Assembly (NCBI GenBank): GCA_963798915.1
Contig: CAWCVB010000006.1
Location: 1-64,000, forward strand
Reading direction: 5' to 3'
From: an uncultured Gemmatimonadales bacterium
Lineage (GTDB): Bacteria; Gemmatimonadota; Gemmatimonadetes; Gemmatimonadales; GWC2-71-9
Length of the DNA stretch: 64,000 bases
Shown here: positions 1 through 18,429 of the stretch, in pieces
Layout of the letters: the number at the start of each line of letters is the position of its first letter
Numbering within the stretch: the stretch's first letter is position 1
Translations under genes and position numbers: made by a program
Notes under the pieces: generated by a model
Database searches by the model: none
The model's input: the letters and a program-made list of their open reading frames with translations, nothing else
What the model was told of the DNA's origin: nothing

Positions 1-933
1 GCGCTCCCTTGGCGCGCGGAGCGTTGCAGAGGCTGCTCACCGACGCACGCCAAGCCATCCATGAAGGCGCCCCGGTCGGCTCGGCACTCGCTGCCGGGAT
101 GGGGCTCGTTCCTGGGGGTCATAACCGGAATGGTGGCGCCGGTGAACGAGCCGGACGCCTGGGCCTGGCACTGGATCGGGCAGCGTCGCACCTGGAGCAG
201 GAGGCCGAACTGCTAGGGAAGCTTCGCCAGTCGTTGGCGTATCCGGTCATGCTGGCTGTCACCGGAACCATCTCCGTGCTCGTGATCGGCACTGTGGTTG
301 TTCCCCGGTTCGCGGCCCTGCTCGCGGATCTGGGACAATCGCTTCCGCACTCCACCCGGTTGCTGCTGGCCGGTTCCGCCTTGCTCTACCCGGCATGGTC
401 CCGTCCTGGCTGGAATCGCGATCGTTATCTCCATCGTGCTGTACCGGGATGCACTATACGATCGGCGGTTCTCTTGATTCACCACGTGCTTCTGTCATTG
501 CCGGTTGTCGGGGCAGTGCGTCATTCCCTCGCATCCGCCCGATTCTGCCGAGCGCTGGCAAGCACGCTGACAGCGGCATGCCGGTCCTTCCGGCACTCAG
601 CGCCGGGGCGGAAGCGTTGGGTGACGCGGCGCTGCTGTCACGTCTGGAGCGGGTCCGCGAGCGGGTTTCCCGAGGCCAGCCGCTTGCGAGTTCACTCTCA
701 GCGGAGCGCGCCGTCGTCCCGGTATGTGCCCAGTTGCTCGCGGTAGGGGAGGCCGGCGGGCGTCTGGCGGACCTGGCGGAGCGGGCCGCCGATGTGGCAG
801 CGGGCGAAGGCGAGCGGTCGCTGCGCACGCTTGTCGCCGTCATCGAACCGCTCTTCATCCTTTCTTCGGCGGCATAGTCGTCTTCGTCGCGATGGCGCTG
901 CTGCAGGCCGTATACGGACTCAGGCCGGTATAA
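1..933 (+). CDS. gspF: Type II secretion inner-membrane platform protein F (5'-partial, several frameshifts)
   Basis: GspF/PilC motifs are spread over three frames: GERAGRLGLALDRAASHLE..LRQSLAYP..VVVPRFA (9..746), GMPVLPAL..VGEAGGRL..VIEPLFIL (395..877), FGGIVVFVAMALLQAVY* (724..933). Confidence 0.85.
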
Positions 934-1196
934 CCCGACAGGGCTTCACGCTGGCGGAACTGATCGTGGTGCTTGCCATTATGGGAATTCTGTCCGGCGT
1001 TGCCGCGTTCGCGGCCAGCGGCGAGATGAAGAATGGATCTGGAAACGCTCTCGATCAGGACCTGGTGCTCCGCGACTCAGCCGTGTCCCTCGGGCGCCGC
1101 CTCACACGGCGTTTCACCGACTCCGCCGGAGTCACTTTCTGGACGACGTATCAGCCGGATGGCCGCGTCATACGTGGTTCAGCCCTTGGCCGGTAA
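930..1196 (+). CDS. Short type II secretion pseudopilin (GspH-like), ~88 aa
   Basis: Prepilin motif TRQG|FTLAELIVVLAIMGIL with E5. The in-frame codon overlapping the gspF stop is ATA (ATAA, where the operon otherwise has NTGA overlaps). Confidence 0.7.
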   Translation: MTRQGFTLAELIVVLAIMGILSGVAAFAASGEMKNGSGNALDQDLVLRDSAVSLGRRLTRRFTDSAGVTFWTTYQPDGRVIRGSALGR

Positions 1197-1198
1197 AA

Positions 1199-1258
1199 GA
1201 CATGGGACACGAGACACGAGACACGGGACTTGAGACACGAGACACGAGACACGAGACA
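1199..1258. repeat. Heptanucleotide tandem repeat (GACACGA)n, ~8.5 units
   Basis: gacatgg gacacga gacacga gacacgg gacttga gacacga gacacga gacacga gaca read directly. Confidence 0.95.
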
Positions 1259-1277
1259 GTCGGTCGAAGGAGAGCAA

Positions 1278-1624
1278 TTGATACGCAATGAACGTGGTGT
1301 AGTCCTGCTCGAAGTGATCATCGCCCTGACGATTCTCTCGGTGAGCGGCCTCTCGATGACAGCGCTGGTCTCGGCCGGGTTTGACGTCCAGCGCCAGGTC
1401 GAGGCACGGGAGCTGGAGCTACGCAGTGCCGACCGCGTCCTTGCTGCATACGCGCTTCTCACGCGCGACGAGCTCGACCTGCGCCTGGGTCAGCGTAAGG
1501 TCGGCGAGTTCCGGGTAACGGTGCAACGGCCCGACCCCGCTCTCTATCGGGTCGGCGTCGCAAGCGATGACGCACCGGACCCGCCCTGCTGGTAACGGTG
1601 CTCTATCGGCCGCCATCTCCATGA
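1278..1624 (+). CDS. gspI: Minor pseudopilin GspI-like (frameshift near 1580)
   Basis: AAGGAG RBS then TTG 1278; NERG|VVLLEVIIAL prepilin motif. The shifted frame LLVTVLYRPPSP* ends at an ATGA overlap with the next gene. Confidence 0.7.
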
Positions 1625-2151
1625 TCAATCGACGTAGCGGGTTCACGCTGATCGAGCTGCTGGTGGCCATCACCGTTGCCGGCATGGTGCTCCTCCTGGC
1701 GCACGCGCTTTTCGGGGCGGTTGCCGATGGGGCTGCGCGTATCGGACGGCACCATGCCGAAGCCGAGGCCCGGGCTGCGAGTCTCAGCTGGATGCATGAG
1801 ATACTGCGCTCGGCTGAAATCGGCCGGCCGGATGACGGCGGATTCGAGGGCGCGACCGATTCCGTGGCATTCACCGGCTATCTCCGGACGCCGGGAGGCT
1901 GGCCGGAGCGGCGCCGGATCACGCTGAAGACGGAATCGGGGGGTCTTCTGCTCCTGGCCGGTGACGACACGCTGCCACTGCAGCGCGGAGTAAGAGGAGT
2001 CTCGTTCGATTATCTGCTGGAGCCGGGAGCCGGCTCCCGATGGGTCAATGAGTGGCATTCCCCGGTGAGTGTGCCTCTGGCCATCCGCCTTCGACTTGCC
2101 GACTCACTCCGCGTGGATACGATGCTTTTTCTCGTCGGGACGCGGGGTTGA
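1621..2151 (+). CDS. gspJ: Minor pseudopilin GspJ-like
   Basis: MINRRSG|FTLIELLVAI; C-terminal W..EW...VPLAIRLRL typical of GspJ; position between I and K. Confidence 0.75.
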   Translation: MINRRSGFTLIELLVAITVAGMVLLLAHALFGAVADGAARIGRHHAEAEARAASLSWMHEILRSAEIGRPDDGGFEGATDSVAFTGYLRTPGGWPERRRITLKTESGGLLLLAGDDTLPLQRGVRGVSFDYLLEPGAGSRWVNEWHSPVSVPLAIRLRLADSLRVDTMLFLVGTRG

Positions 2152-16665: not shown

Positions 16666-17100
16666 GGGCTGGGCGATGGCCTCGCATCTCAAGACCGACC
16701 TCGTGCTCGCGGCGCTCAATATGGCCATCATGCAGCGCCGCCCCACCGACGTGATTCATCATTCGGATCACGGCTGTCAGTATACGGCCCCGGCCTTCGG
16801 ACACCGGTGCCAGCAGCTGGGCTTGCTCCCCTCCCGCGGGGACCGTCGGCGACGCCTACGACAACGCGATGGGCCGGGAGCTTTTTCGCCACGCTCGAAT
16901 GCGAGCGTCTCGACCGGCGCACCTATCGCGCCCAGGCCAAGGCGAAGCTGGACCTGTTTCAGTACCTCGAAGGCTGGTACAATCCGCACCGGCGGCACTC
17001 TGCCATCGGTAACCAGTGGCCGATGGCCTACGAACGTCTCAACGCCGAGGCAGCGTGAGATCCCAAGACGCTGCCTCTCCGCGAAAGCGGGTCAACGCCA
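16666..17100 (+). mobile_element. Second IS3-family remnant (degenerate integrase core plus right end)
   Basis: GWAM..LVLAALNMA..IHHSDHGCQYT / GDAYDNA..SFFATLECE..EGWYNPHRRHSAIG over shifted frames; ends CTCCGCGAAAGCGGGTCAACGCCA. Confidence 0.85.
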
Positions 17101-17238
17101 GCTGGCAGCGCTCCGCCCGCCTCATGGAGGGACTTCTCAGTCTATGAGATGGCTCGTGAGGATCTGAAAGCGTGTCAAAAAGGGGGGCGAGCTGACGTTG
17201 GTGGATAATGTTGTATCTCGACCTGTCAGAGTTAGGGG

Positions 17239-17580
17239 ATGCACGTGATTTCCCGATTCTTGCCGCTTCAAGTTGTGCTTGTCCTTTTGGGCGTAGCCGC
17301 CGTGCGCCGGGATTTTCGTCGCTACCGCGCGGCGTCCGGCGGCACTCCCGAGGGACGTCAACTCCGCCGGGTTGGGCACGAACGCGTACTTTATGGCCTC
17401 GTCTTCGTAATCTGCTTTGTCCTCGCGGTGTCGTCGCGGCCTGTCTGGGGGTGGCCCAAATGGATTGGGTATTCGCTTGGTGCCCTCGCCGCGGTGGCGT
17501 TAATCGGCGGTCGTTGGCGGACCTTACGTCTTGAGGCTTCGGCTTCGTCAGACAAGCAAGTGCGCGGACGAAATGACTGA
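17239..17580 (+). CDS. Small three-TM membrane protein, orphan immunity candidate
   Basis: 113 aa with three hydrophobic segments; same orientation as the rhs array. Confidence 0.45.
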   Translation: MHVISRFLPLQVVLVLLGVAAVRRDFRRYRAASGGTPEGRQLRRVGHERVLYGLVFVICFVLAVSSRPVWGWPKWIGYSLGALAAVALIGGRWRTLRLEASASSDKQVRGRND

Positions 17581-17983
17581 ATAAGCACGCCGTCTCCGGG
17601 GCTCGATCAGTCAGGTCTCCAAGCGGCCACTTCAGCCCGGGCGTGATGGTAGCACTTCTCATGCTCTCGGATGCACGTAACTGAGCGGCTCGACCAAGCG
17701 CTGCGGGCTGCACTACGCCACCCATTCGAGCGTGACATACTCGACGTTCAAGCCTCTTGCTGGTTCAAGGGGCCTGAATTGGCTGTGCCGTGATGGCCGC
17801 TGATCGTCTTGGCGACCGCGTGGCGGTTTGTGCTTGCGATTCAAGGTGTAGTCAGCGCCGGAGCATTGAATTGCAACTTCCATGTTTCGCCGCAACATGA
17901 TATGTCCAGCTTTTCGGAATGTGGCAAGCGTGATCTTTGTCCACCGGCATGTCATGTTTCGTGCTCGTGAGTATTGGTGCGAC

Positions 17984-18305
17984 CGTAAGCTTCCCCGTCA
18001 AGGACACAGGCCGAAAGTAGACTTTCAGGCGGCCATGGTCCTCGGCAAATAGCTGCGCGGCGGCACACGGCCGAGGCTCCGATGCGGCCGCTCGCTGTTG
18101 TAACTCTCCAGCCATGCTTCGGTCACCTGGCGCACCTCCGCCAGCGACGTGAAGACCCAAGCGTCCAGCACTTCCGTCCGGTACGTCTTGTTGAAGCGTT
18201 CGATGAAGGCATTCTGGTTCGGCTTGCCGGGCTGAATGTGCTGGAGGGCGACCCCATGCTCGGCACACCGGTCGGCCAGCGCTGCCGCCACAAACTCGGG
18301 GCCGT
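17984..18305 (-). mobile_element. IS3-family remnant B (same endpoints as remnant A)
   Basis: Colinear with 15614-15935 at offset 2370; I counted ~46 mismatches in 322 nt by eye. Confidence 0.9.
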
Positions 18306-18341
18306 AGTACATACGGAAGTGGGATAGCCAGCCGGTCAGCG
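18306..18341 (+). mobile_element. IS110 left-end fragment, second copy
   Basis: AGTACATACGGAAGTGGGATAGCCAGCCGGTCAGCG matches 15936-15971 with one mismatch. Confidence 0.75.
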
Positions 18342-18429
18342 GCTCCGGATGGCGGGGCAGCCGTATGACCATGGCTCGCGGCTCTATTTCATGCGGGCCC
18401 GGTACTATGATCCTCAACTCGGCCGGTTT
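18340..18429 (+). pseudogene. Fourth Rhs core remnant
   Basis: Translates RLRMAGQPYDHGSRLYFMRARYYDPQLGRF, then breaks off. Confidence 0.85.

Follow-up and report, generated by a model that had tools for sequence, protein, structure and literature searches.

How a large toxin of the Rhs family that carries a signal peptide leaves a diderm cell is the question raised by a locus at the beginning of the stretch of DNA analysed here, positions 1 to 64,000 of contig CAWCVB010000006.1 (assembly GCA_963798915.1) of an uncultured Gemmatimonadales bacterium, hereafter called the window (64,000 nt). To our knowledge, Rhs toxins of diderms have been studied almost only as cargo that a type VI secretion system (T6SS) delivers, and Bcn-A, a bacteriocin, is the only genetic hint known to us of how an Rhs protein with a signal peptide crosses the outer membrane. 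The G+C content of the window is ~65%, and its closest relatives are Gemmatimonadales metagenome-assembled genomes (MAGs). In the locus, an operon of a type II secretion system (T2SS) ends in a gene for a sigma-54 activator (bacterial enhancer-binding protein, here bEBP2), and the gene for a giant Rhs protein follows on the same strand. We consider it probable that this arrangement represents a conserved module of Gemmatimonadota, in which a full T2SS operon ending in a sensor-less bEBP2 is followed by a sigma-54-dependent rhs gene with a Sec signal peptide, and the T2SS exports the Rhs protein.

According to Pfam and NCBIfam profile searches, the plus strand of 1-7485 contains the distal part of the T2SS operon in the order gspF-(H)-I-J-K-L-M-C-like-gspD-bEBP2 (Table 1). 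Among its products, GspF as the inner-membrane platform, minor pseudopilins including GspK, and the outer-membrane secretin GspD with both of its domains were recognized. An earlier reading of the locus, made from the sequence only, had described a nearly continuous unit of overlapping gsp and activator genes, and this is borne out by the family matches and by start/stop overlaps (GTGA at 3004; ATGA at 4008, 5047, and 6513). Since the overlaps run through 6513, bEBP2 closes the operon and is translationally coupled to gspD. The same sequence-only reading had placed on the same strand an Rhs protein of about 1,500 aa with a Sec signal peptide; the protein has 1,496 aa, and as regards gene content and positions that reading is confirmed. 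Its shell matched RHS_repeat PF05593 (126 bits), YD_repeat_2x, and TIGR01643 (79 bits), and the Rhs_assc_core profile TIGR03696 was matched at residues 1221-1294 (94.7 bits, cut-off 32.5). The start codon is GTG with GGAG 6 nt ahead of it, and an alternative ATG is located at 7614. The AlphaFold2 (AF2) model of residues 1-470 (predicted local distance difference test, pLDDT, 81.7) contains a helix at 13-27, a disordered linker, and an immunoglobulin-like (Ig-like) sandwich at 62-160, followed by a beta-rich plug region and hairpin repeats; the modelled N-terminal helix and linker fit a Sec signal peptide.

The conservation of this gene order was analysed using the C-terminal half of GspD as a query against genome contigs. 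As a result, 62 loci (L001 etc.) were found, nearly all of them labelled Gemmatimonadota. According to tblastn with the window proteins, the T2SS gene order upstream of gspD is the same in the relatives, and the full set bEBP1-gspE-gspG-gspF-...-gspD-bEBP2-rhs is present in L012. The bEBP2 gene immediately follows gspD in 42 of the 55 loci having at least 1.2 kb downstream. An open reading frame (ORF) encoding an Rhs shell lies downstream of gspD in 33 of the 46 loci having a flank of at least 3 kb, so the linkage extends beyond this genome, a point on which the earlier reading could have been refuted; on the upstream side, Rhs was found in just 2 of 62 loci. In 23 of the 33 Rhs-linked loci the open frame begins 850-1300 nt past gspD on the same strand, in seven it lies elsewhere on the same strand (nearer or farther), and in three on the opposite strand. 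Of the 32 largest downstream ORFs, 22 contain Pfam RHS_repeat; six more match the shell part of a local Rhs profile, to which four unrelated large ORFs gave no match. Signal peptides were present in all 22 Rhs N-termini inspected, usually with AxA and then Q at the cleavage site. The number of Ig-like domains in the Rhs homologues varies from one to ~8, and L032 carries Tox-REase-7.

The linkage holds at GspD identities down to ~55%. In a quick IQ-TREE tree of GspD (60 of 63 rows; L059, L061, and L062, with short or broken GspD segments, were left out), Rhs-linked loci are spread over the whole tree, Longimicrobiaceae included. Two loci of the same MAG, L010 and L014, have sister GspDs, and each module has its own giant Rhs; for L014, tblastn gave no matches for gspF to gspM upstream. 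Another pair, L050 and L054, represents two T2SS-bEBP2 clusters with sister GspDs on one contig. By these sequence comparisons, the linkage is a real, conserved feature, and the same layout across the phylum suggests that the T2SS is used for toxin export.

The second line of evidence concerns the spacer between bEBP2 and rhs, which is AT-rich and 130 nt long. The PF00158 profile was matched in bEBP2 at positions 1-74 and 72-167 in two frames, and the GAFTGA loop of its AAA+ sigma-54 interaction domain is visible in the translation. Only ~20 residues precede the AAA+ domain, so the protein has no sensor domain. Its putative target, a sigma-54-type promoter with repeats upstream, lies in the spacer (Table 1). 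The repeat array 7483-7523 is identical in L001; in most loci, other lineages have arrays of their own in this place, with repeats or inverted repeats that differ from those of the window, as would be expected of enhancer sites co-evolving with their activator.

Of 29 homologous rhs genes, 19 have the motif GG[CT]A[CT]-N6-TGC in sense orientation no more than 260 nt ahead of the signal peptide, and in 14 of them it lies at -63 to -92. The background frequency was 135 of 6,830 windows (2.0%), the reverse complement was found in 3 of 29 genes, and shuffled sequences gave a mean of 0.56 and a maximum of 5; the pattern had been set after the first matches were seen, and the same pattern served as its own positional control. 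Plotted by position across the loci, matches of the motif form two peaks, with 23 in the 500-nt bin just past bEBP2 (56 loci) and 11 just before gspE, and at most 6 matches in every other bin. Before gspE, 11 of 37 loci have it 17-70 nt ahead of the point where the GspE alignment begins, and in L006, L007, L010, and L011 it is nearly the same sequence as the rhs promoter of the window. The opposite-strand Rhs copies of L017 and L035 still have the motif, and Rhs-less loci lack it after bEBP2 with the sole exception of L046. A search of the whole window with the canonical sigma-54 consensus (at most 2 mismatches) showed no enrichment (74 found, 78.5 expected); the sigma-54 signal becomes apparent only once position and relatives are considered. 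Elsewhere in the window, the 7-nt word of the enhancer-like rhs repeats recurs twice on the minus strand at 28459-28540, the copies being 75 nt apart and situated between the gene of an M1 peptidase and the nuo operon; their surroundings showed no convincing -24/-12 element.

The following working of the module is proposed. Transcription of the T2SS operon would also yield bEBP2, translationally coupled to gspD, and bEBP2 would bind the lineage-specific repeats just past its own gene and open the -24/-12 promoter of rhs, so that the toxin would be made only while the exporter is made. The Rhs protein would pass the inner membrane by Sec, its YD cocoon would fold round the C-terminal toxin in the periplasm, and the adjacent T2SS would carry it through the outer membrane. 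Outside the cell, the Ig-like N-terminal domain(s) and the cocoon would bring the variable toxin to competitors, and the small membrane proteins encoded downstream would confer self-immunity. Gene content, order and overlaps, signal peptides, linkage, promoter motif, repeat arrays, and polymorphic tips are read directly from the DNA; binding by bEBP2, dependence on sigma-54, T2SS-mediated export, the target, and toxin activity are what we infer from them. The polymorphic tips and the small membrane proteins as immunity candidates point to interbacterial competition. The earlier proposal that a folded Rhs is exported through a T2SS of its own has thus gained the recurrent linkage and the sigma-54 promoters beside the activator, and its export step is still drawn from linkage. 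A further-reaching version is advanced only tentatively, at a little under even: Gemmatimonadota would have an antibacterial weapon of their own, in which the T2SS, rather than a T6SS, would be a committed exporter of Rhs cocoons of 150-300 kDa, and a two-step sigma-54 cascade, from bEBP1 to the T2SS operon with bEBP2 and from bEBP2 to rhs, would tie the cargo to the synthesis of the machine. If so, the T2SS would rank with the type V, VI, and VII systems (T5, T6, T7) among the dedicated delivery routes of polymorphic toxins, and could be recognised by its signature neighbours.

Several observations weigh against export by the adjacent T2SS. The GspD tree, in which the sequence-only reading had proposed to see whether the Rhs-linked copies form a clade apart, contains no such clade. 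A downstream Rhs is missing from 13 of the 46 loci. Of the 33 Rhs-linked loci, 5 are without bEBP2, and in 7 loci bEBP2 stands past gspD with no Rhs. The motif is missing from 10 of the 29 Rhs genes and from 26 of the 37 gspE upstream regions, and no rpoN gene was seen in the window. Gene neighbourhood and common promoters indicate co-regulation rather than an export route, and a cocoon of ~160 kDa may not fit in so short a secretin (~490 aa). Complex prediction of the GspD N-terminal domains with the Rhs Ig-like region gave a score of 0.00, which is no verdict and evidence neither way.

The intermixing of Rhs-linked and Rhs-less GspDs in the tree, the loci having only one of bEBP2 and Rhs, and the gspE genes without the motif speak for regulatory hitch-hiking. 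According to this explanation, bEBP2 and its target rhs sit at the end of a general housekeeping T2SS operon that secretes ordinary exoproteins, and the Rhs protein is periplasmic, associated with the outer membrane, or crosses it otherwise. The excerpts of Zhang et al. 2012 (PMC3482391), where "T2SS/Sec" is a default route without signature neighbours, also agree with it. Together, these possibilities appear rather unlikely in view of the linkage kept at ~55% GspD identity and through rearrangements, including the opposite-strand copies that retain the motif, and of the duplicated modules of one MAG, each with a giant Rhs. The window showed no further genes for export across the outer membrane, and Bcn-A is an Rhs that can need a T2SS (PMC7259588). 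The fixed spacing and strand in 23 loci, the difference between downstream (33/46) and upstream (2/62) occurrence of Rhs, and a conserved sigma-54 promoter with enhancer-like repeats beside a sigma-54 activator make a chance or hot-spot insertion of mobile Rhs islands beside the T2SS, with no functional or regulatory tie, extremely improbable and close to refuted, even though insertion sequence (IS) fragments, orphan cassettes, and a lower G+C content downstream of rhs would fit it. The possibility that the protein is T6SS cargo was ruled out, because it has no PAAR, VgrG, or Hcp and a Sec-type N-terminus instead. In line with the earlier reading, which had recognised no PAAR domain and no vgrG, hcp, or eagR neighbour, profile scans found no PAAR or other trafficking domain in Rhs, and no vgrG, hcp, or eag neighbours or other T6SS families were present among the window ORFs scanned.

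A separate difficulty, not mentioned in the sequence-only reading, is posed by six single-base frame breaks in the 7.5 kb of the T2SS part (two in gspF, one in gspK, two in gspD, and one in bEBP2). The breaks of gspD lie at ~5136 and ~5809, its signal peptide being in the first frame and the N0 domain in another, and that of bEBP2 at ~6789, beside the GAFTGA loop. There are no breaks in rhs and both orphan tips (6.9 kb) and at least 4 in the other 46 kb, so that break density in the T2SS part is ~9x that of the rest; by a rough binomial estimate, such clustering would arise by chance in ~4 of 10,000 cases. Real breaks would mean a non-functional T2SS beside an intact Rhs, which would speak against a dependence of Rhs on the T2SS in this organism. 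The breaks of the T2SS part were placed by profile coordinates and relatives, the plot of G+C at third codon positions (GC3) being too noisy there.

Breaks of the same kind are found in other genes of the window. The sdhA gene is split at 20700-20810 (FAD_binding_2 profile 2-153 and 160-414 in two frames) near a G7 run, probably by a homopolymer indel that is an error of the assembly. Three overlapping ORFs at 23008-25666, one with a Big_1 domain and another with an LVIVD repeat, resemble a single gene of a ~880-aa secreted protein, in which GC3 shows frame switches at ~24160 and ~24550. At 51768-54272, the FabH C-terminal domain ends at profile position 62 of 90 and is followed by in-frame FabD, probably owing to an indel near the fabH end.

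Decay of the T2SS and bEBP2 genes into recent pseudogenes, leaving the intact Rhs silent or exported otherwise and the system of the window inoperative, would account for the breaks. The absence of any break from rhs and the orphans agrees with it, as does L001, the closest relative (92% identity in the C-terminal half of GspD), in which gspD is intact and both gspD and bEBP2 are in frame; compared with L001, the window has an extra C at ~5809 and an extra A at ~6789. The IS debris and the lower G+C content downstream (0.61-0.63 vs 0.65-0.68) indicate a rearranging region. On the other side, every break is single-base, the frames are open and conserved on either side with no stops or deletions, and the three cases described above, sdhA, the fabH/fabD fusion, and the gene at 23008-25666 (two breaks), are of the same type; split matches also occur in the long-contig MAG loci L006, L059, and L061. 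Since housekeeping genes are broken too and all breaks are single-base with both sides open and conserved, assembly indel errors are the likelier cause, and we regard decay of the T2SS as quite improbable.

The export of a large Sec-dependent cargo by the T2SS encoded beside it has precedents. The gene pulA in the Klebsiella pul secreton and sslE/yghJ with the E. coli T2SS-beta are large cargo genes adjoining, and co-regulated with, the exporting T2SS operon. Unlike the Rhs of the window, however, their cargo is a hydrolase lipoprotein and not a polymorphic toxin, and they are not regulated via sigma-54 and a cluster-encoded bEBP.

A characterised precedent is Bcn-A of Xanthomonas perforans, an RHS-family bacteriocin of 1,398 aa that, according to excerpts of the original report, is active in the culture supernatant, has an immunity gene downstream, and loses its activity in a mutant of xpsD, the T2SS secretin gene (PMC7259588). 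As described, it is, like the Rhs of the window, a large Rhs/YD protein of a diderm with a downstream immunity gene. In contrast to the module proposed here, Bcn-A needs accessory ORFs, and the excerpts describe neither T2SS genes in its locus of five ORFs (xpsD was cloned separately with genome-derived primers) nor a cluster-encoded sigma-54 activator or a -24/-12 promoter (PMC7259588). In the passages available, Zhang et al. 2012 place RHS toxins that have a signal peptide in a "T2SS/Sec-dependent" class, for which they give no signature neighbours (PMC3482391). This class has the same signal peptide, YD shell, and polymorphic toxin with immunity gene and is likewise T6SS-independent, whereas in the module the conserved neighbours are a full T2SS and an activator.

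Sec signal peptide, YD shell, and polymorphic toxin with immunity are also shared with WapA of B. subtilis and with Rhs4/Rhs5 of M. xanthus; the latter have signal sequences and are T6SS-independent, according to the relevant part of a review (PMC10433427). Unlike the Rhs of the window, WapA is from a monoderm, and the Myxococcus proteins have no known outer-membrane route. In regulation, the module resembles the P. aeruginosa H2-T6SS cluster, which encodes an enhancer-binding protein, Sfa2, that together with RpoN switches on the machine and antibacterial toxins, as described in extracts of PMC8855297. The H2-T6SS toxins, including Rhs, have no signal peptide and ride on VgrG/PAAR, whereas here a T2SS and a Sec-dependent toxin are involved. 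In Foldseek comparisons, the AF2 model of residues 1-470 matched teneurin, teneurin-like, and T6SS Rhs shells (PDB 9g41, 6cmx, 9ifo, 8qjc, 7q97) with E from 2e-11 to 1e-7; as the query covers only part of a multi-domain protein, TM-scores are low (0.15-0.4). The modelled order of Ig-like domain, plug, and shell appears nearer to teneurins than to T6SS Rhs, and there is no PAAR or VgrG-binding N-terminus. A homologue search with residues 1-430 gave 9 matches only, every one an RHS protein.

The sequence-only reading had named no characterised system with this arrangement. The literature searches yielded no account of a T2SS-Rhs gene module, nor of Rhs in Gemmatimonadota, which agrees with it as to the gene arrangement; Bcn-A and the class of Zhang et al., as far as the excerpts of these sources go, are precedents for the principle (PMC7259588, PMC3482391). 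Export of Rhs by the T2SS is therefore already known as a concept, and the hard-wired, phylum-wide module is new as far as the literature was searched. Such a module gives the route a genomic signature (complete T2SS, cluster-encoded sigma-54 activator, and rhs gene with a matching promoter) that can be searched for in other phyla, and it points to a simple order of regulation, in which the exporter comes first and the toxin second. The question becomes testable in cultured Gemmatimonas strains and bears on the size of folded cargo that a T2SS can handle. The module, if confirmed, would be a further, competitive trait of an abundant, poorly understood soil phylum.

Table 1. Features of the T2SS-rhs locus and the region downstream of it (positions in the window)
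Feature	Position	Strand	Remarks
gspF, 3' two-thirds	3..933	+	5' end beyond window start; frame breaks ~557-575 and ~850-862
Short pseudopilin, GspH-like	792..1196	+	N_methyl PF07963 30 bits; weak GspH and GspG matches; start codon uncertain
Minor pseudopilin, GspI-like	1230..1595	+	Weak XpsI and N_methyl matches
Minor pseudopilin, GspJ-like	1567..2151	+	N_methyl 32 bits; weak gspJ match
gspK	2052..3007	+	True start probably 2148-2154; one frame break ~2702-2717
GspL-like assembly-platform gene	3004..4011	+	Assigned by position; tblastn relatives at the same position in other loci
gspM	4008..4571	+	NF040576 GspM/XpsM E 5.5e-12, below cut-off
Gene "x" with one transmembrane segment, tentatively GspC/GspN-like	4547..5050	+	In the expected position; weak GspC_delta match of the L012 orthologue
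gspD secretin	5047..6516	+	Secretin_N PF03958 51 bits; Secretin PF00263 154 bits
bEBP2, PspF-like sigma-54 activator, 320 aa	6513..7485	+	Sigma54_activat and AAA_lid_14; ATGA overlap with gspD stop
Enhancer-like repeats: 12-nt palindrome and further half-site	7483..7523	+	3 of 7 TGAGAAT copies in the 64-kb window
Sigma-54-type -24/-12 element GG-N10-GC	7591..7606	+	~35 nt before GGAG and GTG start of rhs
rhs, 1,496 aa	7641..12131	+	Signal peptide, Ig-like domain, plug, YD shell, Rhs core, ~200-aa C-terminal putative toxin
Candidate immunity gene 1, small protein with several transmembrane segments	12211..12606	+	Position and hydrophobic translation; no family match
Orphan Rhs tip 1, glycine-rich C-terminal domain	12607..13749	+	Rhs_assc_core 93 bits; 96% repeat of 11043-11342
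Candidate immunity gene 2, small transmembrane protein	13797..14054	+	No family match
Orphan Rhs tip 2, third distinct C-terminal domain	14017..15216	+	Rhs_assc_core 95 bits; 87% repeat
Candidate immunity gene 3, acyl-carrier-protein-like	15213..15515	+	Weak acyl carrier protein matches, E 1.8e-5, below cut-off
IS debris	15608..18339	.	IS3-type transposase 3' fragments, IS110 fragment, further IS3 fragment (NCBIfam); direct repeat D2 85%
Fourth core-tip repeat, remnant	18340..18430	+	Repeat family D3 87%; 82% identity to L001 rhs

As for the individual T2SS proteins, the TIGR02120 profile of GspF was matched at 96-280 in frame 3 and at 280-379 in frame 2, and the final 25 residues were located in frame 1 by tblastn with the GspF of L012, a full-length orthologue that scores 260 bits against a cut-off of 424. 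GspK matched NF037980 at 2-202 in frame 3 (E 3e-12) and PF21687 with 38 bits; its C-terminal part is in frame 2 according to tblastn with the GspK of L015 and L009. The best NCBIfam match of GspD, type_II_gspD (TIGR02517, positions 229-358 and 400-600), has 173 bits, below the equivalog cut-off of 351. Relatives of the GspI-like protein were found by tblastn in 28 of the 41 loci having at least 6.5 kb upstream. In Pfam and NCBIfam, the GspL-like ORF and gene "x" have no family match; the GspC-like label of the latter has as its sole basis a weak GspC_delta match of its orthologue in L012 (20 bits, E 4.6e-4). GspE and GspG would lie upstream of the window start. In L012, they score 549.5 bits (cut-off 630) and 158.7 bits (above the NCBIfam cut-off of 88.85), respectively, and GspE was located by tblastn in 40 of the 62 loci. 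The GspI-like ORF has at its 5' end a heptamer tandem repeat (1198..1258, 8.7 copies, Tandem Repeats Finder score 87), which may represent either a tract prone to slippage or noise.

Some T2SS loci deviate from this layout. The Rhs-less L051, L052, and L060 have a different gene order and long branches in the GspD tree. They contain a divergent type of T2SS with gspE downstream of gspD (at 10717-12159 in L052) and neither bEBP2 nor Rhs, which may be the ordinary T2SS of some Gemmatimonadaceae. In the Longimicrobium-like Rhs proteins of L055 (1799-4285), L056 (11859-16889, minus strand), and L058 (6444-12503), a phycobilisome-linker-like domain precedes the shell, and that of L058 also has PA14; bEBP2 is missing from these three loci.

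Downstream of rhs, the sequence-only reading had recognized orphan cassettes of core tip and immunity gene. Rhs_assc_core was indeed matched in both orphans, and the core-tip repeat occurs four times (11343, 12958, 14458, and 18340); three different C-terminal domains stand behind a repeated core tip, each with a candidate immunity gene. The C-terminal ~200 residues of the Rhs protein have no family match, and the best score of a structure-atlas search, 0.80, is at noise level; this domain is a putative toxin, and the small ORFs putative immunity genes, judging by position and gene arrangement. No homologue of the C-terminal domain and immunity gene of the window was found in L001 despite the 92% GspD identity. 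A pre-toxin stretch of the Y-P-x-K-G-G-x-x-P-W-Q-like type just past the core (11530-11650, 13150-13270, and 14700-14800) is common to the three C-terminal domains and may be a translocation or linker segment. The acyl-carrier-protein-like product of 15213-15515 would be unusual as an immunity protein.

In the IS debris, two IS3-type 3' fragments are on the minus strand (15655-16023 and 18025-18537). Further downstream are the housekeeping genes mdh, sdhCAB, and the nuo operon, and a tRNA scan of the window found none. A tyrosine recombinase (61095-62156; Phage_integrase and SAM-like N domain), probably xerC/xerD-like, is encoded far from the Rhs island.

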